From Centroscyllium fabricii (taxonomy: Eukaryota), in the NCBI GenBank assembly GCA_051313645.2, contig JBNRSN020000019.1, positions 20,646,001-20,710,000 of the forward strand: a stretch of DNA of 64,000 nt, given 5' to 3'. Made by a program: the position numbers and the translations under genes. Under the pieces are notes generated by a model. The model ran no database searches. It was not told where the DNA came from and worked only from the letters and a program-made list of their open reading frames with translations. Below are positions 342 to 38,260 of the stretch, piece after piece. The stretch's first letter is position 1. Each line of letters opens with the position of its first letter.

Positions 342-518
342 CTACTGGGTTTTTTATCTGGTTTTTCGCCTCTCCCGGGTGATCACATGTGTTTGGGTGG
401 GATGGAAAGTTAAAATAAAATTGAGGTTGGGATCAGATCAGCCATGATCTTGTTGAATGGCGGAGCAGGCTCGAGGGGCCGATTGGCCTACTCCTGCTCC
501 TATTTCTTATGTTCTTAG
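342..518 (+). mobile_element. CR1/HER1-type LINE 3' tail fragment
   Basis: Ends in gatcagccatgatc...gaatggcggagcaggctcgaggggccga...ttcttatgttctta, the tail shared with many SINE/LINE copies in this window. Confidence 0.7.
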
Positions 519-519
519 T

Positions 520-3500
520 GGGACTGGTATTTGTGGGGTATTTCCCATTCTGTCTCGTGTCCATCTCTGGACCACTCAGGTCCCTTGTTTTGTGATCTGT
601 CTGTGAGTTTTCCCTCAACTTTTCCTCTTCTCCCCCTTCTTGAGGGCAAAATGTCTCATTTGTTTTCAGAAGGTGCCTCCTGTTCCTGCGGTACACCTCT
701 CCTATCTCAGTTATAACATTGTAGGATCTGGGAGCAACCTGCTGCAAGACTGTGGCCTTCTTTGACCATGACTCTGGTCCTTGAATCTGAACCATATCCC
801 TTTCCTGTAATGGTGCTAATCTTGTAGCAGTCCTGTCATGGTACGTCTTTTGATTTAATTGCAGCCTTCTGGCCTTGTCCGCCCACCCATCATTTCTTTG
901 GTCTGGTGCAGCGTAGCAAGGTATTCTTGTTCTTATTATCCTGCCCATTAAAAGCTCAGCTGGCGACTTGCCACTTGCCAATGGTGCCGCCCTGTATGAC
1001 ATTATTGCCAGATACGGATCTGCATTACTGCTTTCTGCTTTTTTCCGTCTTTTGACTATTTGCACCCCCTTTTCAGCCTTTCCATTCACCTGGGGATAGT
1101 GTGAGCTAGAAGTTATATGTTTGAATTCGTATTCGGAGGCAAATGCCCGGAATTCCTGGCTGGCATATGGGGTCCATTATCTGATACCAGAGTCAAAGGG
1201 ATGCCCTGTCTGGGGAAAAAAAATATTTCAAATGTGTGATCACGCCTCTTGACGTGGTGCTAGACAACAGGGCTATCTCTGGGTAATTTGAATAGTAATC
1301 GATGACTAACAAATAGTCCTTTCCCCCAAAATGGAACATATCTGTTCCCACCTTTTCCCAAGGGTGGTTTGGAATTTCTGTGGTGATGAGGGGCTCCTTA
1401 GTCTGTTTGTATTGATTGGCACGTGGCACACTCACTTACTAATTGATCAATGTCCGCATTCATATTCGGCCAGTACAGTGCCTCTCGTGCCCGCCTTTTG
1501 GATTTTTCTGCCCCCAGGTGCCCTTCGTGTATCCTCCCTAGCATCTCTGGTCTCATGGAGGTGGGTACCACTATTCTGTCCCCCTTGAGTAGGATTCTGT
1601 TTACTACGGATAGTTCCCCTTGTATCGGATAGTATTGCTTGCAGGACCCTCTTTTCCAGCCCTCCTGCAGGTTTTTCATTACTTTTTTTAGTACTGGAGC
1701 CTTTGCTGTTTCACTTGTTATCACTGCCAACTGTTGAGATGAAGCAGGCAGTGCTGCATAGACCATGTCTACGTGGAGATTCACATCCTCCTTGGTGTCA
1801 CTATTTTGCATGCCACATGGTGCAGCTCTTGACAGTGCATCCGCAATGTATATTTGTGTCCCTGGCACATATGTTGGATCAAAATCATAACGCTGAAGTC
1901 TCATCATCAAGCGTTGTATTCTTGGTGACATGTCACATAACTTTTTCTTTATAATTCCTAACAGTGGCTTATGGTCTGTTTCCAGTATAAATTTTGGTAG
2001 TCCATCGGCATATGTGTGGAATTTTTCGCACCCAAATGCCAAACCCAGACATTCTTTTTCAATCTGTGCATACCTGCACTCTGTGGCCATCATAGAACGT
2101 GACACATATGCCATCGGCCTCCATTCTCCATAGTCTTCTTGTAGTAGGACCGCCCCGAGCCCATTCTTGGGTGCACTGGTCGACACTTTGGTCCTTTTTT
2201 TTTGGACAAATTTTTATTTAATAGGGGTTCACTTGCTAAGATCTGTAATAGCCCCTTCCATTCCTGCTTTTGTTCGTGTCCCCATTGGAACTTCTTGATG
2301 CAGCAGCTTTCTCAGGTGCTCAGTTTTTGTGGCTAGATTCGAGATAAATTTCCCTGGATAGTTCACCATGCCAAGGGCCCTCTGCACCCTTTTTTGTCTT
2401 CAGGCTTTTCCATGTCCTGAATTGCTTTAATCTTAGTCTTGTCTGCCTGTACCCTCTCTGTGGAGATCTTGTCTCCCAGAAAAGTTATCTCCTTTACTCT
2501 AAATTGACATTCATCTTTATTTAATTTAAGTCCGTATTGCTGTATCCTCTGGAGCGTTTTTTCCAGCCTGCTGTCGTGCTCCTTCTGTGTGGAGCCCCAT
2601 ACCACCAGGTCATCCACATAGACCAGCACCCCTTCCAAGCCCTCTATAATTGTCTCCACCGCTCTGTGGAATATTTCTGGGGCTAAGCTTATGCCAAATG
2701 GCAGACGCTGGTATGAGTATCTACCAAACGGGGTGTTAAATGTACACAGCTTGGCACTTTCCACGTCCAATTTCAGTTGCCAAAATCCATGGGAGGCATC
2801 CATTTTTGAAAAGAATTTTGCCTCCGTCATCTCACTCACTATTTCTTCTCTTTTGGGAATTTGATAGTGTTCCCGCTTTATATTGGCGTTAAGGTCCTTG
2901 GGGTCCATGCATACCCTCAATTTATCATTGGTTTTTAAGTTGATGCAGACCATTGAATTCACCCAATCTGATGGCTGCTCAGTTTTTTTTATAACAGCCA
3001 GTCCTTCCATTCGATCCAGCTCTTTCCTCAGCTTTTTGCGGAGGGCCACTGGCACTCTCCAGGGTGCATGTATAACTGGTTGTGCATCGTCCCTTAATTT
3101 AATAGAGTCTGTGAAGGGCAGCGCTCCAAACCCTTGAAATACATCCGCGTATCTCTGCATTATATTGTCTGAATTCATGTCCGAATTCTCTCGTAGGTCA
3201 TTTCGTGTTTCATTTTCTCCATTGACTGTGTAAACTCTTTTTACTAGACCTAATTCCATGCAGGCCTTATCTCCTAATAGTCATTTGTGCCCTTCTGGCT
3301 CTATAACAAAAGTGAGGAAGTGCCTACGCTGTTTTACTATCAGCCTCAATCTGCACATTCCTGTTCTCTCGATGCTTTGGCCATTGTAGGCCTTTAAGGA
3401 TACAGTCCTGTTTATCATCTTAGGTTTCACTTTGAGTTTTTTTACATCACCGCAATTTATCAAGTTCGCTTTTGCCCCCGTATCCAGCTTAAAGGGGATT

Positions 3501-6139: not shown

Positions 6140-6528
6140 TTGCCAGTACTCCAGCACACATCCAATCTCAATAGAACTGGATACGAAATTGGCTATGGAA
6201 CAGAAAGCAGAGTGCAGTGGTGAACTGTTGTTTTTCCAGACTGGAGGAAAGTATTAAGACAACTACTCCTTTTGATATATATTGATGACCTGGACTTGGA
6301 TATACAGGGCATAATTTCAAAGTTTGCAGATGCCACAAAACTCAAATGTAGTAAACAGTGAAGAGGAGATTAACAGACTTCAGGAGGACATAGGCTGCCC
6401 AGCAGCCTGTTTGAATAAGCAATTTAACGCAGAGAAGTGTGAAGTGATGCATTTTGGTAGGATGAATGTGGAGAAGCAATAGAAACTAAATGGTACAATT
6501 TTAAAGGGGGATAAGGTGGGGTGGGTAC
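6140..6528 (+). mobile_element. Old CR1 LINE fragment, left half (interrupted by the LTR element)
   Basis: Decayed CR1 RT motifs (tcaaagtttgcagatg = SKFAD; aagtgtgaagtgatgcattttgg = KCEVMHFG). Continues at 9158. Confidence 0.75.
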
Positions 6529-7194
6529 TGTCGACTGCCCCAGCTATGCGAGGGTGTGGTCGACGAAGCACAACCAAAACAAAGCAGCCGGAGTCAGAAA
6601 TTCAACAGAAGAGACACTAATAACCACCAACTCTACATGCACTTCACAGGTTTCAGTCTTTTATGCATTTCACAGATTCCAATCTTCTATGCATTTCACA
6701 AGCTTCACTTCAAGAATCCCCTTTAAATTCTAGGTTTCTGGGCCAACTGGCCGCTTACCACCCAAGGAGTAAGAGAGGAGCCGCTAGTCCAGGGCAAGGT
6801 TCAACGTACTCTCTCCCTTTTGTCCTTGTGCTCTGTATATAAAGGCTGCCAGAGTGATTAGTATCAATTAGAGAATGCGGCCCACCTGGGCTCGCATTCC
6901 CCATGCTTCCTCTGGCTGTTTGGTAATCAGGTGGACGCCATTCAGGTGTGCTGCCCGAGAATGGAAAATCCCCACTCTGCCTCCGTGCCATGGCCACCCC
7001 CATGGTGCTGAACCCGTCGAGGAGATGGCTTGGAAGGTATTGGTCTTCGATTACCTGTCCCAGGGGTCTGCGTCGCTGATATGGTCGGCCATGACGGTTG
7101 CGGTGGGTTTCTAACTCGGTGGAGCACAGAGAGGGGATCGGGGCGCCACGTACCCCTTTCCTCAGCTCCAAACCGTTGCAAGGAGCGCTTGACC

Positions 7195-7588
7195 ACAGGC
7201 ATTCTTTAAAACTGCAGGGGTAGCAATCATGTTTTCTCTCGTGTATCTTGCGTTGATTCGTCTTAAACTTTATCTCACATCCCTCCTCCTGGCACATAAA
7301 AGCAGGCTCTTTAGTGTGCTGGTAATAGTGGATCCTTAAACCTGTACGCTTCTTGAAGGTCTTGTCACAATCTTCATAAGAACCCGTGAAGTATTCTTGG
7401 TTTCCAGGCCGATACTTCAGGTGCTTCTTCAAACGGTCATTGCTAACAAATGCTTCTGTGCAACCCACCTCTGTACATCTGAACCACTTCTGTCCCAAAT
7501 GCTGTTGTGTGTGTCTCTGCAGATGAGACTTTTGGGTGAAAGTCTTCTGACATTCCTGCCGCTCACATTTGTAAGGCTTCTGCCCCTC
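7195..7588 (-). pseudogene. 42sp43: Captured intronless fragment of p43 5S-RNA-binding protein (42Sp43; TFIIIA-family C2H2 zinc fingers)
   Basis: GQKPYKCERQEC...HLGQKWFRCTEVGC...KHLKYRPG...KTFKKR...HTKEPAFMCQEEGC...RKIHERKHDCYPCSFKEC: C-x4-C fingers and the short H-x-x-Y-x-C linker typical of TFIIIA/p43. Some zinc ligands are lost. TFIIIA (gtf3a) is not fully excluded. Confidence 0.7.
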
Positions 7589-7589
7589 G

Positions 7590-8202
7590 ATCTCCTGGAC
7601 CATTCTTAGAGTTGCCCAGAATTGCCTGAGGGTCGTCTTGCCCTGAACCAGGATCCTTGCAACCTGTGTTTTGAGCTTCCCTCATCCTTTTCAAGCTGTT
7701 CGTCATGCTGGACAATATCAAACACTTTGATTTCTGCTGCAGACCCAATGCCATCTTTGTTACTTCCAGAAGTTGTGTCGCTTTTCTTCCAGCTGTCTTG
7801 GTTGCGTTCACAGAGCTCCAGAGGTTTCTGTTCCAGACTGTCCAGCATCCTTCACGTCACCTGCTTGAGATTCAGAAACCTCTTGGAAAGATATCTTCTG
7901 TGGCTAGCAATGACTTTGTACCGACTCTCCTGACTGGCTGCCTGGCGAGATGCTCGTGCACAGAGTCGGATACGTTCGGCACTGGTCCCAGAGGGATAGA
8001 GGGCCAGCAAGGCCTCGTCTTTGGAGCTTGCTTCTCTCACGTGCTTCTGAACAGGGTCATCCTGAGCGCCGACGGTGGCGGCCAGTTTGAAGAGCGTCCG
8101 GAGAACATGTCCCGGGCGCTGCTCCCCGCCAACCCACGGCCGCTTGCAGGCCAGCAGCACGGCCTCGGCGGGCTCCTCGCCGTGCTTCCGCTTCACCCGC
8201 AG
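7590..8202 (-). pseudogene. SLC7A6OS: Captured intronless 5' fragment of SLC7A6OS (Iwr1 homologue), fused in frame to gag
   Basis: LRVKRKHGEEPAEAVLLACKR...LFKLAATVGAQDDPVQ...QESRYKVIASHR...VFDIVQ...DPQAILGNS..MVQE follows the recalled SLC7A6OS pattern (LRVKRKR..EPAEALVLACKR...FxLVATV..QEEPVQ...QEGRYRV...DPDVILCNS). Internal stop at 7852 and frameshifts. Confidence 0.82.
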
Positions 8203-9157
8203 TGCCGTCCTCTCAAATAGCTCAAGATACGATTTGACATCATCCTTGGGCATTAGCTTCGTCAGCACGTCGTGTGGGCTCCTTTTTTTCTCCCGGGCCT
8301 GTAATGTAGCACAAAGTTCAGCCACCGCTCTCTGCAGCATTACCTGGGCCTGCAGGAGAGTGGTGATTGGGTCCTTCATTGCTGGATCCATTTTGCTATT
8401 CAGGGTCCTTCATTGCTGGATCCATTTTATTATTCCTCCCCCGACTGTTCGTTTCTATCCTGCTTTGTCAACACACAATAGCGAGTTAGAAAGCCAGCAT
8501 TCTCCACCATATGTAGACTGCCCCAGCTATGTGAGGGTGTGGTCAACTGAGCACAACCGAAGCAGCTGGAGTCAGAAATTCAACAAAAGAAAAGAAACTT
8601 TAATAACCACCAACTCTACATGCACTTAATGGGTTTCAGTCTTTTATGCATTTCACAGATTCCAATCTTCTATAATATTCACAAGCTTCACTTCAAAAAT
8701 CCCCTTTAAATCCTAGGTTTCTGGGCCAGTGGCCGCTTACCGCCCAAGGAGAAGGAGAGGAGACTCTGGTCCGGGGAGAGGTTCGGCACCCTCTCTGTAG
8801 CGAGGTCCAACGTACTCTCTCTCTTTGTCCTTGTGCTCTGTATAAAAAGGCTGCCAGAGTGATTAGTGTCAACTCGGGAATGCGGCCCACCTGGGCTCGC
8901 ATTCCCCATGCTTCCTCTGGCTGTTTGGTAATCAGCTGACGCCATTAAGGTGTGCTGCCTGAGAACGGAAAATCCCCACTCTGCCTCTGTGCCACGGCCA
9001 ACCCCATGGTGCTGAACCTGTCGAGGAGATGGCTTGGAAGGTATTGGTCTTCGATTACCTGTCCCAGGGGTCTGTGTCACCGATATGGTCAGCCGTCGTG
9101 ATGGTTGCGGTGGGTTTCTAACTCGGTGGAGCACTGAGAGGGGATCGGAGCGCCACA

Positions 9158-9822
9158 GTACGTACACAAATCTTTGAAAGCGGCAGGATAAGTTGAGAAG
9201 GCTTATGGGATCCTTAGCTTTGTAAATAGAGCTATGGATTACAAAAGCAAGGACGTTATGCTAAACCATTGTAAATCACTGGTTCAGCCCCAACTGGAGT
9301 ATTGTGTCCAATTCTGGGCACCACAGTTTAGGAAGGCTGTCCAGATCTTAGAGAAGTTGTAGAGGAGATTTACTAGAATGGTACCAGAGATGCAGGACTT
9401 CAGTTACACAGAGAGATTACAGATGCTGGGGTTGTTCTCCTTAGAGCAGAGAAGGTTAAGGGGAGATTTAATAGAGGTGTTCAAAATTATGAAGGACTTT
9501 GATAGAGTAAATAAGGCCGAAGCAATTTCCAGTGGCAGAAAGGTCGGTAACCAGAAGACACAGATTTAAAATAATTGGCAAATGAACCAGAGGTGACACA
9601 AGATTTATTTCCCCTGCAGAGTGTTATGATCTGGAATGCACTACCTGAAAGCGGATTCAATAATAACTTTCAAAAGGGAGTGAATAAATACGCAGAGCAA
9701 TAATTTGCAGGGCTATGGGGAAAGGCCGGTGGGGGTGGGACTAATTGGATAGCCTTTTTGAAAGAGCTGACACGGGCACGATGGGCCAAATGGCGGCCTC
9801 CTGTGCTGTACCATTCTATCAT
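9158..9822 (+). mobile_element. Old CR1 LINE fragment, right half, with 3' tail
   Basis: LGLFSLEQRRLRGDLIEVFKIMK motif and CR1 3' UTR. Confidence 0.85.
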
Positions 9823-19736: not shown

Positions 19737-21945
19737 ACACACAATACATCTGTAACCTTTTATCGGTTGCTACACGTTCTTGCAGTTACAAACAGTATAA
19801 TAATTAGTGTTGATTAGTCTCTGTTTGTGTGTGTGTGCATGTTGGTCATTCACTGTCTCTCAGGTTGTGGCATGCTGTTACGTATTGTGCACCAAGCTGT
19901 GCCCTATTTCCCTCCCCAAGGATTATTCTTAGTTTTGATATATCATCTAGTTCTTTGAAATCTGGGATTGCCAAGCTTAATTTGTCAAAGTATGTTTTCC
20001 TTGTTTTGTCGAATTTTTAGCATTTTAGGAGGAAGTGCACCTCTGTTTCAACCTCATCTGTCAAACAGTGACCGCATATTCTATTTTCTCTTGGCTGCCA
20101 GGATTTCCTCTGTCTTCCTTTTTCGACTGCCAACTGGTGGTCACTTAGTCTGTACCTGGTGAGGGTCTGTCTCTGCTTTATATTTCTGACAGTTGAGAGA
20201 TAGTCTGCCAATTTATAATCTCTTTTTAGGGCACGGTAACATTCTAATCTGCTTTGGCTTTTGGTTACTTTATCCCAATGTTCCAAATAGGTTTCTTTGC
20301 ATTGTTTGATGATTTGGTTCACTCTAATTGGTGTTTGGAAAGCAGTGTTGATCTGAGACTGGTCAAGGTTTGACTGAGTAGGGGTAGTTAGTCTCAATAC
20401 CAACTGACACAGGGGACTCTTTTCTGGGTTCCGCCCTTGGGTTTGGAGGGCTTTAAACTGGAGGGTGTCTGGGGGACTAGATTTAAGGTGATTCCAAAAG
20501 TTTAATGCTCTTTTTTGGATATTTATTATCAGTGGGTATCTGCCTAATTCCGCCCTACATGCGTTTGTTGGTGTTTTCCTTTGGGTGCGGAGGATGCTCC
20601 GGCAACATTCCGCATGTAGGGCCTCCATTGTGTGTTTTTCCCATTTAGCATAACTATGATGACTGAGCGAACCCCATACTTCACTACCATAAAGCGCAAT
20701 GGGCTGGATTACACTATCAAATATTTTAAGCCAGATTTTAATTGGAATTTGGATGTTGTAGAATTTTCTTTTTATTGCATACAGTGCTCTTCGAGCTTTC
20801 TCTTTTAGTGCATTCACTGCCATGCTGAAGCTCCCTGATGCTGCAATGGTTAGACCAAGGTAAGTGTAGCTCATAGCGTGTTCGATAATGGTATCATTAA
20901 GAGTGAATTGGTATTTGTCTTCCTGACATCTGTTTTTTTTGGAAAAATCATGATGTTGGTTTTCTTTAGATTTACTGTCAGGGCCCAATTTTGGCAGTAC
21001 TCATCGAGTAGATCTAACTGTTGCTGCAGTCCCTGTTCTGTGGGAGACAGCAGAACCAGGTCATCCGCATAAAACAGGGATTTTACCTCTCCGTCTTTAC
21101 TCTTATACTCAAATCCTCTTGTAATAAAGGCCAACATACCATTTGCTTTCCTAATTGCTTGCTGTACCTGCATGTTAACTTTCTGTGATTCTTGTACAAG
21201 GACACCCAGGTCCCTCTGAATACCAACATTTCCCAATCTCTCCATTTAAAATATATTCTGCTTTTCTATTTTTCCAACCATTTCTCCACATTAGGTTCCA
21301 TCTGCCATGTTCTTGCCCACTCACTTAACATGTCGTTATCCCATTGCAGCCTTTTTGCATCCTCACAACTTACTTTCCCACCTAGCTTTGTATCATCAGC
21401 AAACTTGGATACATTACACTTGGTCCCCACATCTAAATCATTAATATAGGTTGTAAATAGCTGAGGCCCGAGCACTGATGCGGTACCCCACTAGTTACAG
21501 CCTGCCAATCCGAAAATGACCTGTTTATTCCTACTCTCTGTTTTCTGTCCATTAACCAATCCTCAATCCATGCTAATACATTACCCCATATCCCATGAGT
21601 CCTAATTTTGTGTAATAACCTCTTGTGCGACATCTTAGCCAATGCTTTTTGAAAATCCTAATACACGACATGCACTGGTTCCCCCTTAACTAACCTGCTA
21701 GTTACAACCTCAAAAAACACTTGGATTTGTCAGACACAATTTCCCTTTCATAAATCTGTATTGACTCTGCTCAATCATATTATGCCGTGTTACCACGTCC
21801 CTAATAATAGATTCCAGCATTTGTCCTGCTACTGATGTCAGGCTAACCGGTCTACAGTTCCCTGTTTTCTTTCTCCTTTCTTGAATAGTGGGGTTACATT
21901 TGCTGCCTTCCAATCCACGGGGATCGTTCTAAAATCTGTGGATTT
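18945..21945 (-). mobile_element. Degraded CR1 LINE split by an RTEX-like insertion
   Basis: Tail at about 18945; RT fragments (YINDLD, SKFADDTKLGG, RPVSLTS) at 21100-21945. The two halves join across 19544-21091. Confidence 0.85.
19544..21091 (-). mobile_element. 5'-truncated RTEX-like non-LTR retrotransposon with 9-bp TSD
   Basis: YADDLVLLSP...LYGSEVWG...CRAELGRYP...RYRLSDHQLAVEKGR...RICGHC...VETEVHFLLKC; (ttgaa)n tail; TSD cgtctttac at 19535-19543 / 21092-21100; (tatatg)n in the 3' UTR. Clade label is from memory. Confidence 0.8.
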
Positions 21946-23792: not shown

Positions 23793-24480
23793 CAAATTCA
23801 AATTCAAATTCAAATAGCTTTATTGGCATGAATGGCATCAACCCTTGTTGCCAAAGCGTTTTTACATACACAAAAATACATTTGTAACATACATATAAAA
23901 TACATTTTTAGACGTAATAACAACAGTACTAACAGAGTATACACAACCGCATCCGTAGTAACATCAGTAGATATATAGCTTAAATGCAGTTTCAAACCAT
24001 ATCACAGTCAATGTTGGTTCTTTTCTGCCTGTGTGTGCGTGCATGTGTGCATGTTGGTCAGTCATTTTCCCTCAGGTTGTGGCATGCTGTTACGTATTGT
24101 GCACCAAGCTGTGCCCTGTCTCCTTCGCCAAGGATTATTTTTAGTTTTAGGGTATCATCTAATTCTTTGAAATCTGGGATTTCTAGGTCCAGTTTGTCAA
24201 AGTATGATTTCCTTGTTTTTTCGAATTTTTTGCAATTTAGGAGGAAGTGCATCTCTGTTTCAACCTCATCCGTCGAACAGTGACCGCATATTCTATTTTC
24301 TCTTTGCTGCCAGGATTTCTTCTGTCTTCCTTTTTCGACTGCCAACTGGTGGTCACTTAATCTGTACCTGGTGAGGGTCTGTCTCTGCTTTATATTTCTG
24401 ACAGTTGAAAGATAGTCTGCCAATTTATAGTCTCTTTCTAGGGAGCGGTAGCATTCTAGTCTGCTTTGGTTTTTTGTTGC
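23793..24480 (-). mobile_element. RTEX-like 3' fragment inserted in a (TC)n tract
   Basis: Highly similar to 19544-20270; (tttgaa)n tail abutting ctctctc. Confidence 0.85.
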
Positions 24481-25020
24481 TCTCTCTCTCTCTCTGTCTC
24501 TGCACTGAGTGCTGCGGGGCAAAATCTCTCTCTCTCTCTCTCTGCACTGAGTGCTGCGGGGCAAAATCTCTCTCTCTCTCTCTGCACTGAGTGCTGCGGG
24601 GCAAAATCTCTCTCTCTCTGCACTGAGTGCTGCGGGGCAAAATCTCTCTCTCTCTCTCTCTCTCTCTGCACTGAGTGCTGCGGGGCAAAATCTCTCTCTC
24701 TCTCTGCACTGAGTGCTGCGGGGCAAAATCTCTCTGCACTGAGTGCTGCGGGGCAAAATCTCTCTCTCTCTCTGTCTCTGCACTGAGTGCTGCGGGGCAA
24801 AATCTCTCTCTCTCTCTCTGTCTCTGCACTGAGTGCTGCGGGGCAAAATCTCTCTCTTTCTCTCTGTCTCTCTGCACTGAGTGCTGCGGGGCAAAATCTC
24901 TCTCTCTATCTGCACTGAGTGCTGCGGGGCAAAATCTCTCTCTCTCTCTGTCTCTCTCTCTCTCTGCACTGAGTGCTCTGCGGGGCAAAATCTCTCTCTC
25001 TCTCTCTCTCTCCTTTTTAG

Positions 25021-25432
25021 AAAGATAGGAGCAGGAGTAGGCCATTCAGCCCTTCAAGCCTGCTCCACCATTCAATGAGATCATGGCTGATCATCCAAAC
25101 CCTGTAACCCGCCCCTGCCCTCTCCCCATATCCCTCGATCCCGCACCGACACATATCCCACCCTATTCCCATATATTCAATCTCCCTAACACTAAGGGTA
25201 AATTTATCCTGGCCAAGCAACCTAACCCTGCACAATCAACCTAACCCTGCACAATCAACCTAACCCTGCACATCTTTGGACTGTGGGAGGAAACCGGAGC
25301 ACCCGGAGGAAACCCACGCAGACACGGGGAGAATGTGCAAACTCCACACAGATAGTACCCGAGGCTGGATTTGAACCCGGGTCTCCAGTGCTGTGAGACA
25401 GCAGTGCTAAGCACTGTGCCACCGTGCCGCCC
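25021..25432 (-). mobile_element. HE1-type V-SINE with an internal 19-bp tandem triplication
   Basis: Same family as other copies; caacctaaccctgcacaat repeated about 3 times at 25218-25272. Confidence 0.88.
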
Positions 25433-30500: not shown

Positions 30501-33500
30501 TTATGTAATGAATACAGTCTACGACATCGATGTTGTGAAACTTTGTGGTGGGTTGTTGTATAGCATTTTAGTTTCCTTTTTATTTGCACCATTCCCTGGC
30601 TTTGAAGACAATCCACTTTCATTTCTCTGTTGTTCTGTGACTTTGCAAGAATTACCCAGAAGAATTGCCAGGTGAACATGCCTGGCCTTGAGTATTGTAG
30701 GGAACGGCCGTTCCCCACTCTTTAAAATCAATAAAATGTCGAAAGATCGCGGAGCAAGCTTTAACAGGTCTTTATTGGTTTCAATCCAAACACGACTACT
30801 CACAAAAGGCGCAAAACCGCAAAGCATCATGGGGCTTTTGACTGACAGCCCGCAGGAACTGGAACTGTTAATCCAACCACCCAAGGGGGAAACAGGGGCG
30901 GGACCAACTCTGGAATGGGGATTATAACGTCCTTGGGAGACCAGAGTGTCTCCCCCTAGTGGCTATGCTACACACGCCCCCCCAGAATCCTCATGAACAT
31001 GATAAGTCAACCTTCGAGGAGGCATGACGAGGCAGCCGCAATGAGTGCGATAGGCCACAGGTGCAGGGGGAGATACCGGGGATCCGCGAACAGGACTGGA
31101 GGGTGGCTGCGCCGCAGGAGTGGGAGGCGAGACCGGAGAGAAACCCTGAGGTGGAGCAGGAGCCGGAGCTGTATCCGGGAGTGGACCAGCACGGGACCCG
31201 CTGGGGGCACGCTCGGGGCAGAGAAATGCTCCTGGCGCGGGGCCCGGGAAAACTGTTCAGGCGAGGCTGGGTCCAAATGGGCCGGTTTAAGCCGGTCGAT
31301 GGAAACGAGGTCCTGTTGGCCTCCAACCGCGAGGACGAAAGCCTTGTCGCCAGCCTCCAGCACCCTAAAAGGGCCAGTAAATGGCGCCTGTAAAGGAGTC
31401 CTATGGGCATCGCGACGCACAAAAACAAATCGTGCCTGGCGGGTATGTGGGATGACCGGGCACCATGCAAAGAGGTGGGCAATGGAAGGAAAAGATGCGC
31501 GGCGTCATTGTGCCGGGCGAGCTGCTCACCGGCTGACCAATTCCCGGTGATGGAGAGGAGGAACTCTCCTGGAATGCGCGAAGGTTGTCCAAAAACGAGT
31601 TCGGCGGAAGTAACGCCGAGGTCGTCCTTGGGCGCGGAGCGCAACCCCAGCAGGACCCAAGGGAGCCTGTCCAACCAATTGGCGTCGACTAGGCTGGCAC
31701 GATGTGAGACCTTGAGGGCGCGATGGAAACGTTCGCAAATACCGTTTGCCTGTGGATGATAAGCAGTCGTGTGGTGCAACTGCGTCCCCAGACCAGTGGC
31801 GATTGCGCTCCACAGCTGGGAGGTGAACTGTGGGCCCCAGTCGGAAGTCATGTCCGACAGAACCCCAAACCGAGCCACCCATGAAAAAATAAAGGCACGT
31901 GTCATGTCGGCCGTAGTGGTGGAAGATAGGGGTACGACCTCCGGCCACCTAGTGGTATGGTCGACGATGGTAAGGAGATGGGTGGATCCCTGTGATGGGG
32001 GCAAGGGGCCAACCAAATCAACATGGACATGATCAAACCGCCGCTCGAGCACCGGAAAAGTTTGCAGGGGAGCCTTAGTATGCTGATGGACTTTAGCGCG
32101 TTGGCAGTCATGACAGGTGTTAGTCCAGTCCCGCACATACTTGTGCAGGCCCGGCCAAACATATTTGGCTGACATAAGTTTCTGAGAAGCCCGCATGCCC
32201 GGGTGTGAGAGCCCATGGACCAAACCAGAAATGCGCCTGCGCCAGGAGGTGGGCACTAAGGGCCTGGGGGTGGAAACAGAAACGTCACACAAAAGAGTCG
32301 TGCCGGCTGCATGAAAATGGATGTCCGCTAGGGTCAGGCTGGTGGACGCAGAACAAAGAGCCTGCAGCTCAGCGTCCGCCCGCTGGCCGCGCGCCATTTC
32401 TGTGGAATCGACACCAACGTGGACCGCATGGAGGGACGGACGGGAGAGACAGTCGGCAACGACATTATCCTTACCGGACACGTGGCGGATATCCGCAGTA
32501 AGTTTTGAAATGAAATTCAGGTGGCGCTGTTGGCGACCTGACCAGGGCTCTGTGACTTTGGACATAGCAAAAATGAGGGGCTTATGGTCCACGTAGGCAG
32601 TGAACGGACGGCCCTCCAAGAGAAAAAAAAAATGCTGCACTGCAAGAAAAAGAGCTAGCAGTTCCCGATCGAACGTGCTATACGAGAGCTCATTTTTCCG
32701 CAGTTGGCGACTAAAAAATGCAAGGGGCTGCCAGGCACCGTCAACCCATTGTTGCTGAACGGCGCCAATGGCATGATCCGAGGTGTCCGTCGTGAGTGAC
32801 AGCGGGGCGCCCGGGATAGGGTGGGTTAAAAGGGTGGCTTCGGCCAGGGCCGACTTTGCGAGGCGAAAAGCCTCAGCCATATTAGCCGACCACAGAAGAC
32901 TATCCTTGCCGGTCCTGCCTCTAGTGGCCTCGTACAGGGGGCGCATGATGGAGGCAGCATTGGGGAGGAACTGGTGATAAAAATTTATCATTCCCAGAAA
33001 TTCCTGGAGCGACTGAACCGAGCTGGGCTGGGGAAAATCTGTGACCGCTTGGACCTTGGAGGGTAAAGGGATGGCTCCCGCCGGAGAGATGTGATGACCT
33101 AAAAAATCAATTTCAGTAAGGCCGAATTGGCATTTAACCGGGTTTACAGTTAGGCCATGGTGGGCCAATCTCTGAAAAAGGGAACGCAAATGCACAACAT
33201 GTTGAGATTCATCCGTGCTAACCACCAAAATGTCATCGAGATATACAAATAAAAAGTCCAAGTCCCGAAGGACAGAGTCCATCAGCCGTTGGAAAATCTT
33301 TAACCCGAAAGGCATACGGAGGAATTCAGAGAGTCCAAAAGGGGTAATAACTGCCGTCTTTTGGATGTCGTCCGGATGGACTGGGACCTGGTGATATCCT
33401 CGGATGAGGTCGACTTTTGAAAAAATTGTTTTACCCGCCAGATGTGCCGAAAAGTCTTGAATATGTGGCACCGGGTATCTGTCCGGCGTGGTAGCGTCAT

Positions 33501-36500
33501 TGAGGCGCCTGTAGTCGCAACACGGTCGCCAGCCGCCGCCGGGCTTGGGAACGATGTGGAGCGGGGATGACCAAGGGCTGTTGGAAGGGTGAATGATCCC
33601 CAACTTCACCATGTGACGTATCGTCAAGGTCTTCAATTAAGAGTCGACGCGTAGTTACCGAAACGAAAGGCTTTTAATTACTAAAGAACGGAGCTATTCT
33701 CCAGACGAACTACTATACAGGAATGGATGGAGCCTCGGTCAGACCACACCTATATCGGGGCCTCACCTGGGGGAGGAGTCGGGGGTGTGGCTGACCTGGC
33801 TCCCAACAGAGTCACAGTAAACAGGGCTGTGCCTAACATCTGCACAGCCCATCATTAGTCATGGTGATACAGTGGCATAACAGATATAGAACGGTTACCA
33901 CATTCACCCCTTCTTAAAAACTTTGAGTCCAGGGGGGTGAATGGATCAAACAGTTCATAATTAGTCTGTCCGGCGGTCGTGTCTGCCTGGAGGACCGTCG
34001 GCGCTCCGGTGTTGGCGGCGGTGCCTCCTGTGTTAAATGGTCTGCATCTGCCGGCGCTGTGACTTCAGGTGGCGGTGGGCTCGGCTGGTCCCCGCCGTCA
34101 GGGTCGTAGTCGGGGAAACTCGGGGGCCATCTTGCGTCTGGTGGTTGATCGACCTGCTGGCCCACAGGGGGCGCTGTGGTGGTGTTTCCGGCAGGGGCCA
34201 GGTCCCTGATGGACACGGTGTAATCACGCCCGCCCGGGAACTGCACGAAGGCGTAGTGCGGGTTAGCGTGTAGGAGCTGTACCTTGTCCACCAGGGGGTC
34301 CGTCTTGTGGCTCCGGACGTGCCTTTGAAGCAAAACCGGCCCCGGAGTCGTCAGCCATGGAGGGAGAGCTGTCCCCGAAGTCGACCTCCTGTTAAAAGAG
34401 AAAATCAGATCGTGCGGGGTGGCGTTAGTCGCAGTACATAACAGGGAGCGGATAGAGTGCAGCGCATCTGGGAGGACTGCCTGCCAACGGGACACTGGAA
34501 GGCCTCTGGACTTGAGAGCCAGGGTGACCGCCTTCCAGATGATCCCATTCTCCCTTTCTACCTGCCCGTTCCCCCGGGGGTTATAACTGGTCGTTCTGCT
34601 CGTGGCAACCCCTCTCTGGAGCAGGAACTGGCGCAGTTCATCGCTCATGAACGATGACCCCCGGTCGCTATGGATGTAGCTGGGGAGACAGAAAATGGCG
34701 AACAGCGTGGTGAAGTGTTTGATCACCGTTGCGCTCGTCATGTCTGGGCAGGGGAAGGCGAAGGGGAAGCGGGAGAACTCATCCACTACCGTGAGGAAGT
34801 ATGAGTTGCGGTCGGTGGAGGGGAGGGGGCCTTTGAAGTCCACGCTGAGACGTTCAAAAGGGCGGGTGGCCTTGATGAGGTGCGTCGTGTCTGGCCGGAA
34901 AAAGTGGGGTTTGCACTCGGCGCAGACAGGGCACTCTCGGGTCATAGCCTTGATCTCTGTGATGGAGTAGGGGAGGCTACGGGATTTGACGAAATGGGCG
35001 AGTCTGGTGACACCCGGGTGGCAAAGGCGGTCGTGGAGGTCCTTCAGCCGGTCTAGCTGGGCACTGGCGCACGATCCCCTGGACAGAGCGTCCGGGGGTT
35101 CGTTGAGTTTGCCTGGTCGGTAAAGAATGTCGTACTCGTAAGTCGAGAGTTCGATCCGCCACCGCAGGATCTTATCATTCTTGATTTTACCCCGTTGTTT
35201 ATTATTAAACATAAACGCCACCGACCGTTGGTCGGTGAGCAGGGTAAAACGCTTACTGGCCAGGTAATGACGCCAGTAGCGCACGGCCTCCACGATGGCC
35301 TGGGCCTCCTTTTCCACTGCTGAGTGGCGAGTTTCGGGTCCCTGTAGGGTGCGGGAGAAGAACGCAACGGGCCTGCCTGCCTGATTCAGGGTGGCAGCAA
35401 GGGCAAAGTCCGAAGCGTCACTCTCCACCTGGAAAGGGATGGATTCATCAACAGCGAGCATGGTCGCCTTGATAATATCTTCCTTTATCCTTGCGAATGC
35501 CGTTTGGGCTTCCACAGAGAGGGGGAAGACAGCAGCCTTGAGGAGTGGTCTAGCCTTATCTGCGAACTGTGGGACCCATTGTGCATAATAGGAGAAAAAT
35601 CCTAGACATCTCCTCAAGGCTTTGGGGTTGTGAGGTAGGGGCAGTTCTTGCAAGGGTCGCATACGCTGTGGGTCGGGGACGAGGAGCCCGTTCTCCACCA
35701 CGTATCCGAGGATGGCGAGCCGGGCTGTATTAAAGACACATTTGTCTTTGTTATACGTGAGGTCCAGCTTAGCCGCCGTGGCGAGAAATTTGGCCAGGTT
35801 GGCATCGTGGTCCTGCTGGTCGTGGCCGCAGATGGTCACGTTGTCCAGGTAAGGGAAGGTGGCCTGCAAGTCATTTTGGTCAACCATACGGTCCATCTCC
35901 CGTTGGAACACTGACACTCCGTTGGTCACGCCAAAGGGGACCCGGAGGAAGTGGTAGAGCTGACCGTTCACCTCGAAGGCGGTGTAGGGGCGGTCGGCTT
36001 TCCGAATCGGGAGCTGATGATACGCCGATTTAAGGTCGATCGTAGAGAACACCTTGTACTGGGCGATCTGGTTGACCATTTCTGAGATGCGGGGAAGGGG
36101 GTAGGCGTCGAGCCCGGTGTAGCGGTTAATAGTCTGGCTGTAATCGATAACCAGCCGCTGTTTTTCCCCAGACTTCACCACTACAACTTGGGCGCGCCAG
36201 GGGCTGGTGCTGGCTTCAATTATCCCCTCCTTCAGCATCCGCCCGACCTCCGACCTGATAAACGTGCGATCCCCCTCACTGTACCGCCGACTCTTAGTGG
36301 CAATGGGTTTGCACTTCGGGTCGAGGTTGGCGAACAGCGAGGGGGGCTCGATTTTCAGGGTGGAGAGGCTGCAGGCCGGGCTCCGCTTTGGGAGGAGATT
36401 GTCCCGGCTACTGACGGTGAGGTGGGGTAAGGTCCCGCCGAACTCCATTGTCACACTCTTGAAGTGGCACTGGAAATCCAAACCTAGTAAGGCTGGGGCA

Positions 36501-36814
36501 CACAACTGTTGGAGGGTATACAATTTAAAGTTACGGTACACGCGCCCCTTGACGGTGAGCGTGACGGAGCAGTAGCCGGTGACGTCCACGGTGTGGGACT
36601 GTGAAGCTAGGGAGACTTGGTAGTTGGTGGGCAGGACCTGCAGTCCGCAGCGCCGCACTGTATCAGGGTGAATAAAACTCTCAGTGCTGCCTGTGTCGAA
36701 AAGGCAGTCGACAGTATGGTCATTAACGCTAATCGGTATTATTGAGTTAGACAGGGTATGGGGCCTGCCCTGGATAACTCTGATTCTGGCTGCAGCAGCC
36801 CCTGCTGATCGGGG

Positions 36815-37200
36815 CTGTGCACAAGATGGCGTCGCCCCTGGCTCGCACATGGAGGGGCCCTGGATACAAGATGGCGTCGCCCCTGGCCCGCAGCTGGTGG
36901 GGCCCCGTATACAAGATGGCGCCACCCCTGGCTCGCACATGGAGGGGCCCTGGATACAAGATGGCGTCGCCCCTGGCCCGCAGCTGGCGGGGCCCCGTAT
37001 ACAAGATGGCGCCGTCCCTGGCTCGCACATGGAGGGGCTCTGGTTGCAAAATGGCGTTTCTGAGGGGCCCTGTGAACGCGCTGGCGGCGCCCGTGATTCG
37101 CACGCAGCGAACCGCGGTGATCGGGTTGGCGGTGCCCGTGATTCGCACGCAGAGAACCGCGGTGGTCGGGTTGGCGGTGCCCGTGATTCGCACGCAGCCG
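36815..37200 (-). repeat. In-frame tandem repeats in the gag-protease linker (CxPGxxPSCIxGP and CESRAPPTRxPRFxA units)
   Basis: About 5 copies of a 45-bp unit and about 3 copies of a 45-bp unit of a second type, seen in both DNA and translation. Confidence 0.85.
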
Positions 37201-37995
37201 GCCGCGTTGGGGGGTCGCGCTTGGCCGGCCTTTGCTGCATCAGGGTGGGGGATGGGGGCGCTTGTTGTTTACCCCTGTACCGTCGCTGGATCGCGCTGCT
37301 AATGCAGCTTACCTGGTCTCTGTCGGTGCTCTCACAGGCTGCACTGTTGTACCTTTTGTTAGACGCTGCTGGAGCTGATTTGCAGGCTTTCGCGTAGTGT
37401 CCCTTCTTTGCACATTTCTCACAGGTCGCTGTCCTGGCTGGGCATTTCGCTCTAGGGTGCAGTCCCTGGCCGCAGAAGTAACAGCGCTTGCTTTTAACGT
37501 CTTTAGTGGCCGTCGCGGCCATCGTGGGGGCCTCGGCCCGTGGCGCCCAGGCCTGGGCCTGTTGTGGCGCGGCCCATATGTTGTAGGCTTGCGGGTTGGT
37601 GCCGCTGTACGCCTGTAACTTGCTACGGGCCCCCTCTACCGATTTGGCTAACGTGGTCGCCTCCTCGAGGGATAAATTGTCTCTCTCTAGTAGCCGCTGG
37701 CGGGCTTCCACACACCTCAGTCCTGTGACATAAGCGTCCCGAATGAGGAGTTCTTCCTCCTCTGCAATAGTTGTGTCTTTGCAGCCACAGGCCCGTACCA
37801 GGGCCAGGAGCGCTTGCTCAAACTCCTCATTTGACTCACCCGGTAGTTGAGGTCTAGTCGCCAGCACGTGTCGGGCGTAGACCGAATGGACCGGGCGCAC
37901 GTAGCATTTCTTTAAAATTTGTACAGTCCTTTCGTAGGTTGTGGCGTTCCTGACGAGGGTGAATACTCTGCTGGAGATCCTAGATCGCAGGACAT

Positions 37996-38260
37996 GAGGA
38001 CACGAGCACAAGATTCAAGGAGGAAGATTCAGAAGGGATGGCAGGGGCAGGTTCTTTACACAGAGAGTGGTCGGGGAATGGAATAGGCTACCATCTGGAA
38101 TAGTGGATGCGGACAGTCTGGGTGCTTTTAAAAGGATGATAGACAGGTACATGGAGGGGAAGGAACAGTAGGGGGGAAAGGAAAAATCAGAGATGGACTA
38201 AGGGCGGCACTACATTGAGGGCCCAAGGGCCTGTACAGTGCTGTATGTTCTATGTTCTAT
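37996..38260 (+). mobile_element. CR1 3' fragment inserted into the Gypsy gag
   Basis: Almost the exact reverse complement of 16635-16898. Removing it restores ..DKDMLH|VLRSRISS.. in gag. Confidence 0.92.

Follow-up and report, generated by a model that had tools for sequence, protein, structure and literature searches.

Positions 6529 to 9157 of the window (the whole 64,000-nt stretch of Centroscyllium fabricii DNA that was analysed) hold, on the minus strand, a decayed copy of a Gmr1-type LTR retrotransposon with coding pieces of two host genes, 42Sp43 (p43) and SLC7A6OS. We conclude, with a probability of roughly 0.88, that this non-autonomous element gained p43 and then SLC7A6OS by two rounds of reverse transcriptase (RT) template switching onto co-packaged mRNA. 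In the chimeric copies the element's ORF is replaced by the host pieces, not interrupted by them.

The window element and its two host pieces

The layout of the window copy is given in Table 1. It has the cis signals of an LTR retrotransposon: a TG...CA LTR pair, a tRNA PBS, a PPT and a short TSD. An earlier note on this DNA had reported two LTRs, a GTAC TSD, a tRNA-Ala PBS and a PPT, and each was located; the GTAC on both sides agrees with its reading that the chimera integrated as a unit. The sizes it gave were adjusted: about 65 codons of gag became 63, about 45 nt upstream of the 3' LTR became a 49-nt pol tail, about 600 nt of SLC7A6OS-like sequence held at 602 nt, and about 400 nt of p43-like sequence came to 384 nt in the window copy.

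Table 1. Features of the LTR element in the window, listed in the element's 5' to 3' direction.
Feature	Position	Strand	Basis or remark
TSD GTAC, upstream side	9158..9161	.	
5' LTR, 646 nt, TG...CA	8512..9157	-	
PBS, complementary to tRNA-Ala 3' end	8493..8509	-	
Leader	8392..8492	-	
gag, first 63 codons	8203..8391	-	same as gag start of pol-bearing and one-capture copies
SLC7A6OS coding piece, exons 1-4, host codons 6-212	7601..8202	-	
Element remnant, 15 nt, linker just before integrase	7586..7600	-	sits between the two captures
42Sp43 (p43) coding piece, exons 2-6, C2H2 fingers 2-5	7200..7585	-	
pol C-terminal tail, 49 nt, downstream of RNase H, includes PPT	7151..7199	-	
Polypurine tract	7163-7151	-	
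3' LTR, 622 nt	6529..7150	-	
TSD GTAC, downstream side	6525..6528	.	

The LTRs of the window copy differ by 8.2% over 613 aligned nt, and the inner end of the 3' LTR starts with CG, not TG. An ATTAAA at 8604-8599 in the 5' LTR is a likely poly(A) signal. A 34-nt tandem duplication at 8369-8435 spans the gag start codon of the window copy and is absent in contigs from two other runs. The PBS-derived pattern occurs at 1,344 genome sites, and ARAGORN calls tRNA-Ala in three of seven loci scanned; no tRNA gene was found in the window. Most of the 1,344 matches lie on one strand. A long tandem array at G000:C731:7-172354 repeats a tRNA-Ala-like 3' motif about every 1.28 kb.

The flanks of the element are a CR1-like LINE copy. 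A CR1-like ORF in another part of the window matches the right flank, and contigs of other copies of the LINE join the left and right flanks. The window also holds other mobile elements. A Gypsy-type gag-pol frame, open for 1,366 codons, whose gag contains a GC-rich tandem repeat, lies at 33914-38014 (minus strand) beside an 881-codon pol frame at 30991-33636; these two may be young elements of other families. Broken remains of a Gypsy-type pol from an unrelated family, covering RT, RNase H and integrase, lie at 433-3280 (minus strand), and LINE ORF2 C-terminal pieces lie at 20017-21000 and 24058-25053 (minus strand), the second fused to a simple-repeat array.

The best matches of the SLC7A6OS piece of the window copy are shark SLC7A6OS (75% identity, E 9e-42), not retroelement proteins. 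The piece maps to four exons of the host locus at G000:C667:121.82-121.83 Mb, joined at splice sites near 8061, 7786 and 7655, and the three introns of about 4.9, 2.6 and 3.2 kb are missing. A genome search for SLC7A6OS, in which all 29 of 29 candidates were scored, returned one intron-containing parent (C667) and five intronless copies. Private changes in the SLC7A6OS pieces comprise 60 replacement changes, 26 silent changes and two stops. The host gene itself (L043-L044) has several lineage-specific replacements at sites where the element copies match other sharks.

The zinc-finger piece of the window copy finds shark P43 as its best matches (72%, E 3e-68) and maps to exons 2-6 of the parent at G000:C778:20.684-20.692 Mb, with four introns gone. 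Its identity is 71-80% to shark p43 and 34-39% to teleost gtf3a. In a tree the piece pairs as sister with the host gene among the shark p43 sequences (99/99), apart from gtf3a, the names being database annotations. A search with the p43 C-terminal part, in which 150 of 11,087 candidates were scored, gave one close match among these, the parent locus, and a PDB search returned generic zinc fingers only. With three exon joins spanned in one piece and four in the other, the claim that both genes were captured without introns holds. Since capture, the host p43 gene (G000:C778:20684369-20691680, L066-L067) has changed at about eight shark-conserved residues, where the element copies retain the older states; four of these sites lie in finger 2. 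Intron 3 of host p43 appears to be GC-AG.

Three tiers of copies in the genome

Copies were sought in a 7.2-Gb assembly, and every count given here is a lower bound. They fall into three tiers that share LTR, PBS and PPT: pol-bearing copies, about 44 one-capture copies and five double-capture copies. The one-capture copies have gag and protease, then the p43 piece in place of integrase-RT-RNase H, then the pol tail; some are cut at the 5' end, and none showed SLC7A6OS in the SLC7A6OS genome search. The double-capture copies carry p43 and SLC7A6OS and lie at C700 (the window), C446, C856, C1 and C113. Altogether p43 is carried at 49 distinct loci (48 matches, two being halves of one copy, plus two more).

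Other searches give similar numbers. The internal region of the window element has at least 45 genome matches, from the 40 of 138 candidates scored, and the p43/pol junction pattern has 45, with none in the reversed control. The PPT pattern has 47 matches and none in the control: 35 are p43-type, 11 pol-type and one a short p43 remnant. Thirty of these were typed by direct reading (22 p43-type, 8 pol-type) and the other 17 by place or fetched sequence (13 p43-type, 3 pol-type and the remnant). The LTR motif matched 180 places, so many LTRs of the family are probably solo.

The copies sit at separate insertion sites. Both outer ends could be resolved in 19 copies: the 4-bp TSD is perfect in 11, matches at three of four positions in seven and at two of four in one. 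The double-capture copies have GTAC, GTTT, GCAC and AAGG/AACG, the 3' end of the fifth copy being unresolved. The suggestion of a mobilised gene-carrying family is therefore borne out by 49 loci with common junctions and different TSDs. No third captured gene was found in the 56 copies screened, where extra internal segments look like later repeat insertions, a call made from their ends and mutual matches and not from annotation. Twelve further stretches held element, p43 or shortened copies only. At one locus (L156, G000:C446:138058500-138066500) gag and protease run straight into the 3' LTR, pol and p43 both being absent. A pair of 5'-truncated copies with p43, almost the same in sequence and lying 0.5 Mb from each other (L132 and L133, G000:C823:10947307 and C823:11442725), is probably a segmental duplication and not two separate insertions.

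The family affinity comes from the relatives of the window copy, which itself has no pol. The pol-bearing relative L116 has Integrase_H2C2, Integrase_p58_C, RVT_1 and RT_RNaseH in that order, and integrase before RT is the domain order described for Gmr1-like elements (10.1101/2025.03.03.638093). The gag of L008 scores 27.0 bits for SCAN, with the Pfam cut-off at 27; that of L116 scores 23.8 bits, below the cut-off, and also has zf-CCHC. The SCAN region is deleted from the window copy, and in the one-capture tier SCAN lies upstream of zf-C2H2. The integrase-before-RT order and the SCAN-like gag of relatives support the Gmr1-like affinity that had been proposed. An autonomous partner was also looked for: pol-bearing relatives were found, and all those read have stops or deletions, none being intact.

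An assembly artefact could be suspected, in that no single short-read contig spans the whole element, but this carries almost no weight. Five loci on five contigs, about 7% apart, have common junctions, and contigs from other runs (X5 record 16, X2 record 9) bridge the p43 and SLC7A6OS/element junctions. The artefact reading is refuted by these independent copies. The X5 contig, from a second study, covers the whole p43 piece and continues into one-capture sequence. An X8 contig from the same study spans an SLC7A6OS exon join and diverges from the window sequence at 7760, the point of the insertion in the C113 copy. X11 and X18, from two other organisms, show separate host exons only, and X10 (guessed to be RNA, from another organism) shows host SLC7A6OS and p43 transcripts only, with the LTR uncovered. 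Among the runs that contain the stretch, none is recorded as RNA.

Junctions and the probable order of capture

Each junction was compared with natural copies of the sequences on its two sides. At the gag/SLC7A6OS junction seven exact nucleotides are shared, and the similarity continues at 12 of 15 positions on the 3' side and at 4 of 15 on the 5' side. The SLC7A6OS/element junction shares 8 of 10, with 9 of 15 on the 3' side against 3 of 15 on the 5' side. The element/p43 junction has eight exact shared nucleotides at the 5' end of the piece, within which the p43 exon 1/2 join falls, and the p43/pol junction has five. At both SLC7A6OS junctions imperfect similarity is confined to the 3' side of the crossover, and the letters retained in the chimera are those of the 3' template. 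Such one-sided similarity would fit re-annealing of a growing minus strand.

The 15 nt between the host pieces match the element and neither host gene. The double-capture copies have p43 junctions identical to those of the one-capture tier, plus 15 nt of the linker that lies upstream of p43 in that tier. Because the same p43 junctions and the 15-nt linker are kept, the simplest history is p43 first, then SLC7A6OS, and since the one-capture stage survives in about 44 copies, two sequential rounds with four switches are indicated. The earlier note's minimum of three template switches thus stands, raised to four, while its single tandem capture gives way to two rounds.

The mechanism may be pictured as follows. 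In the first round, RT would leave the element RNA near the end of pol, copy p43 mRNA and return just before integrase; the product, still with gag and protease, would reach about 44 sites. In the second round, RT would leave a one-capture element 15 nt upstream of the p43 piece, copy SLC7A6OS mRNA and return after gag codon 63, and this product would spread to five sites including the window. Enzymes would be supplied in trans by the pol-bearing parent; we only infer this help, because no intact helper element was seen. All tiers would then expand in one old burst and decay as passengers. Packaging of the captured mRNA in the female germ line, in the oocyte, is plausible because p43 is ovary-enriched in teleosts and Xenopus, where its expression is described as ovary-biased (PMC4178482). 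Read-through transduction from an element in a parent locus was considered and rejected: no LTR of the family lies in 17.5 kb at SLC7A6OS or 60 kb at p43.

The capture order rests on structure and not on phylogeny, because the p43 tree is a star and the LTR tree needs three changes; the trees speak neither for this order nor against it. The p43 tree (38 copies of at least 340 nt plus the host gene, nine shorter copies omitted) is an unresolved star with no starred branch, and by itself it does not put the five double-capture copies in one clade within the one-capture group; the pairwise distance of the p43 piece is about 7% both within and between tiers. On the LTR tree the two LTRs of one copy are usually sisters, those of the four pol-bearing copies in the tree group apart from the rest (100/99), and it is the LTRs of the five double-capture copies that need the three changes. 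In 21 one-capture copies, counting some short or partial alignments, the median LTR K2P distance is 0.062; in the five double-capture copies the values are 0.064-0.097.

These values suggest a single old burst in which masters of almost the same sequence gave rise to every tier. Of the near-fixed amino-acid differences, most are changes on the host lineage (about 8 of 11 in p43, judged against seven other cartilaginous fishes), so the masters would have changed little between capture and burst. An absolute age of about 4e7 generations, from about 3% per lineage and the epaulette-shark rate of 7e-10 per generation (PMC10587355), was rejected, that rate not being trusted for this species. The LTRs fall into length classes of about 750 nt and about 640 nt (L055, L057 and L117 against L056, L069, L131 and L128), and four of the five double-capture copies cluster with the short class.

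The similar ages of all tiers, and a tree that cannot order them, would also suit a single RT round that took both mRNAs in tandem, with the p43-only tier arising later by recombination with the parent. We consider this quite improbable. It needs RT to return to the element for just 15 nt between two mRNAs and needs further recombination inside that 15-nt stretch. Near-fixed differences between host and copy amount to 21 of 387 nt in p43 and 17 of 621 nt in SLC7A6OS; the greater distance of p43 would follow from an earlier capture, though p43 may simply evolve faster.

Similar junctions can also result from microhomology-mediated DNA repair. On that reading, recombination or gene conversion at the DNA level would have brought the pieces from existing processed pseudogenes or cDNA into an element already integrated, which was later retrotransposed. 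This origin is very improbable: the genome searches described above give SLC7A6OS only at the parent and the five element copies and, among the candidates scored, p43 only at its parent as a close match; the captured pieces have no poly(A) or TSD of their own; and the extension of similarity on the 3' side fits minus-strand RT. Two rounds of template switching remain the preferred reading.

Reading frame, decay and comparison with known captures

The reading frame is kept across each of the four junctions. When the host coding sequences are compared with six stop-free element ORFs, 36-44% of all exact microhomologies of 4-8 nt are in frame, and the chance of four in-frame junctions out of four is about 0.03. 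This value is post hoc and comes from four junctions and two events only; the excess over microhomology alone tells somewhat against the plain two-round reading but is a lead only. In the window copy the frame is broken by one stop and several small deletions, and its pol-tail frame is open for 131 codons into the 3' LTR. The pol frame extends 128-167 codons into the 3' LTR in nine copies read. The one-capture copy L019 runs from gag through protease and fingers without a frameshift, but with stops, and the longest open stretch across the element/p43 junction is 449 codons among 37 copies read.

The inserted copies decay neutrally. Over 47 copies of the p43 piece dN/dS is about 1.07, zinc ligands are mutated as often as other residues, and the frameshifts, of 21 types, are all private to single copies. 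Selection on the captured fingers is therefore rejected for the inserted copies, and no purifying selection or intact host-maintained ORF, as in a SCAN zinc-finger gene, was found in the copies read. Judged from sequence, no present function is evident for the chimeras. Poly-zinc-finger proteins crowded out the results of a search of other species for a Gag-p43 fusion protein, and a search for longer p43 proteins gave p43 and generic zinc-finger proteins only.

The same two-round history could have run with the frame of the master elements under selection, as one open frame from the gag start to a stop inside the 3' LTR. Open-frame chimeras would then have been amplified by making a stable, packageable RNA or a useful Gag-protease-zinc-finger protein. 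This variant is possible, at well below even odds. The four in-frame junctions, the pol frame reaching into the 3' LTR, the excess of p43-type over pol-type copies (35 vs 11) and the lack of any frameshift common to two copies speak for it. Against it, the frame test has the post hoc character noted above, the master lineage is too short to measure selection, and the inserted copies decay neutrally. A bolder version is more doubtful still. It says that the frame let the chimeras spread, with SCAN-Gag-protease plus RNA-binding p43 fingers outbreeding the autonomous parent about threefold; that SCAN-plus-C2H2 was rebuilt in a shark from the element side, independently of tetrapod SCAN-ZNF genes; that the second capture kept the frame; and that the oocyte cargo marks a burst in the female germ line.

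The mechanism, a two-gene cargo and re-mobilisation are already published (Tan et al. 2016; maize Bs1; crocodilian ERVs), and the shark chimera is notable for its copy number and surviving stages. The earlier note held that such capture is documented mainly in plants, Drosophila and retroviral oncogenes; the record is wider, with LTR-mediated retrocopies in zebrafish, chicken, mouse and human (Tan et al. 2016, PMC5131818) and cases among crocodilian ERVs (PMC4299795). As described by Tan et al., internal ORFs are replaced by partial spliced mRNA with microsimilarity at the switch points, there is a two-gene chimera (CG4799_CG11924_r) and a four-gene mouse case, and retrocopies were further retroposed as non-autonomous elements, all as in the shark (PMC5131818). 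The shark element differs in its Gmr1-type carrier, its roughly 49 copies and the survival of parent and intermediate stage. The words shark, cartilaginous and Gmr1 are absent from the main text of PMC5131818, and in the literature searched, of which coverage was partial, no report of Gmr1 capture in sharks or of this family was found.

Maize Bs1, the model case in plants, is also an LTR element with several host-gene pieces and switch points common to its copies (PMC13317346, PMC5131818). It is described as having 1-5 copies and a transcribed and translated chimeric gene, whereas the shark copies are more numerous and decay neutrally. CrocERV29 with KIT-ligand and CrocERV31 with nectin3 are vertebrate LTR elements in which captured host mRNA was multiplied, to nine and six copies; they are reported as retroviral, single-gene and near full-length in their ORFs, under purifying selection (PMC4299795). 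The shark carrier is Gypsy/Gmr1, with two partial ORFs and no post-insertion selection.

SCAN zinc-finger genes likewise join a Gmr1-like capsid (SCAN) to C2H2 fingers (10.1101/2025.03.03.638093; PMC3424704), and those of tetrapods are said to have a single origin, in a KRAB-ZNF gene that captured a Gmr1 capsid (10.1101/2025.03.03.638093). In the shark it was the element that took the fingers, nucleocapsid and protease intervene, and every copy read is defective. The fingers of p43 are RNA-binding, and the shark copies give no sign of co-option.

No new functional gene resulted here, and the mechanism is known. What the family offers is a staged record of exon shuffling by a vertebrate LTR retrotransposon, with parent, one-capture and two-capture stages in one genome and each of the four switch points legible at single-base resolution. 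Within this family a capture product has more copies than the pol-bearing parent, which shows that such an outcome is possible. The family also gives a possible route by which a Gmr1 capsid (SCAN) and C2H2 fingers may meet, which is the pairing of a large tetrapod transcription-factor family, and it makes testable whether amplified captures are in frame more often than microhomology predicts.
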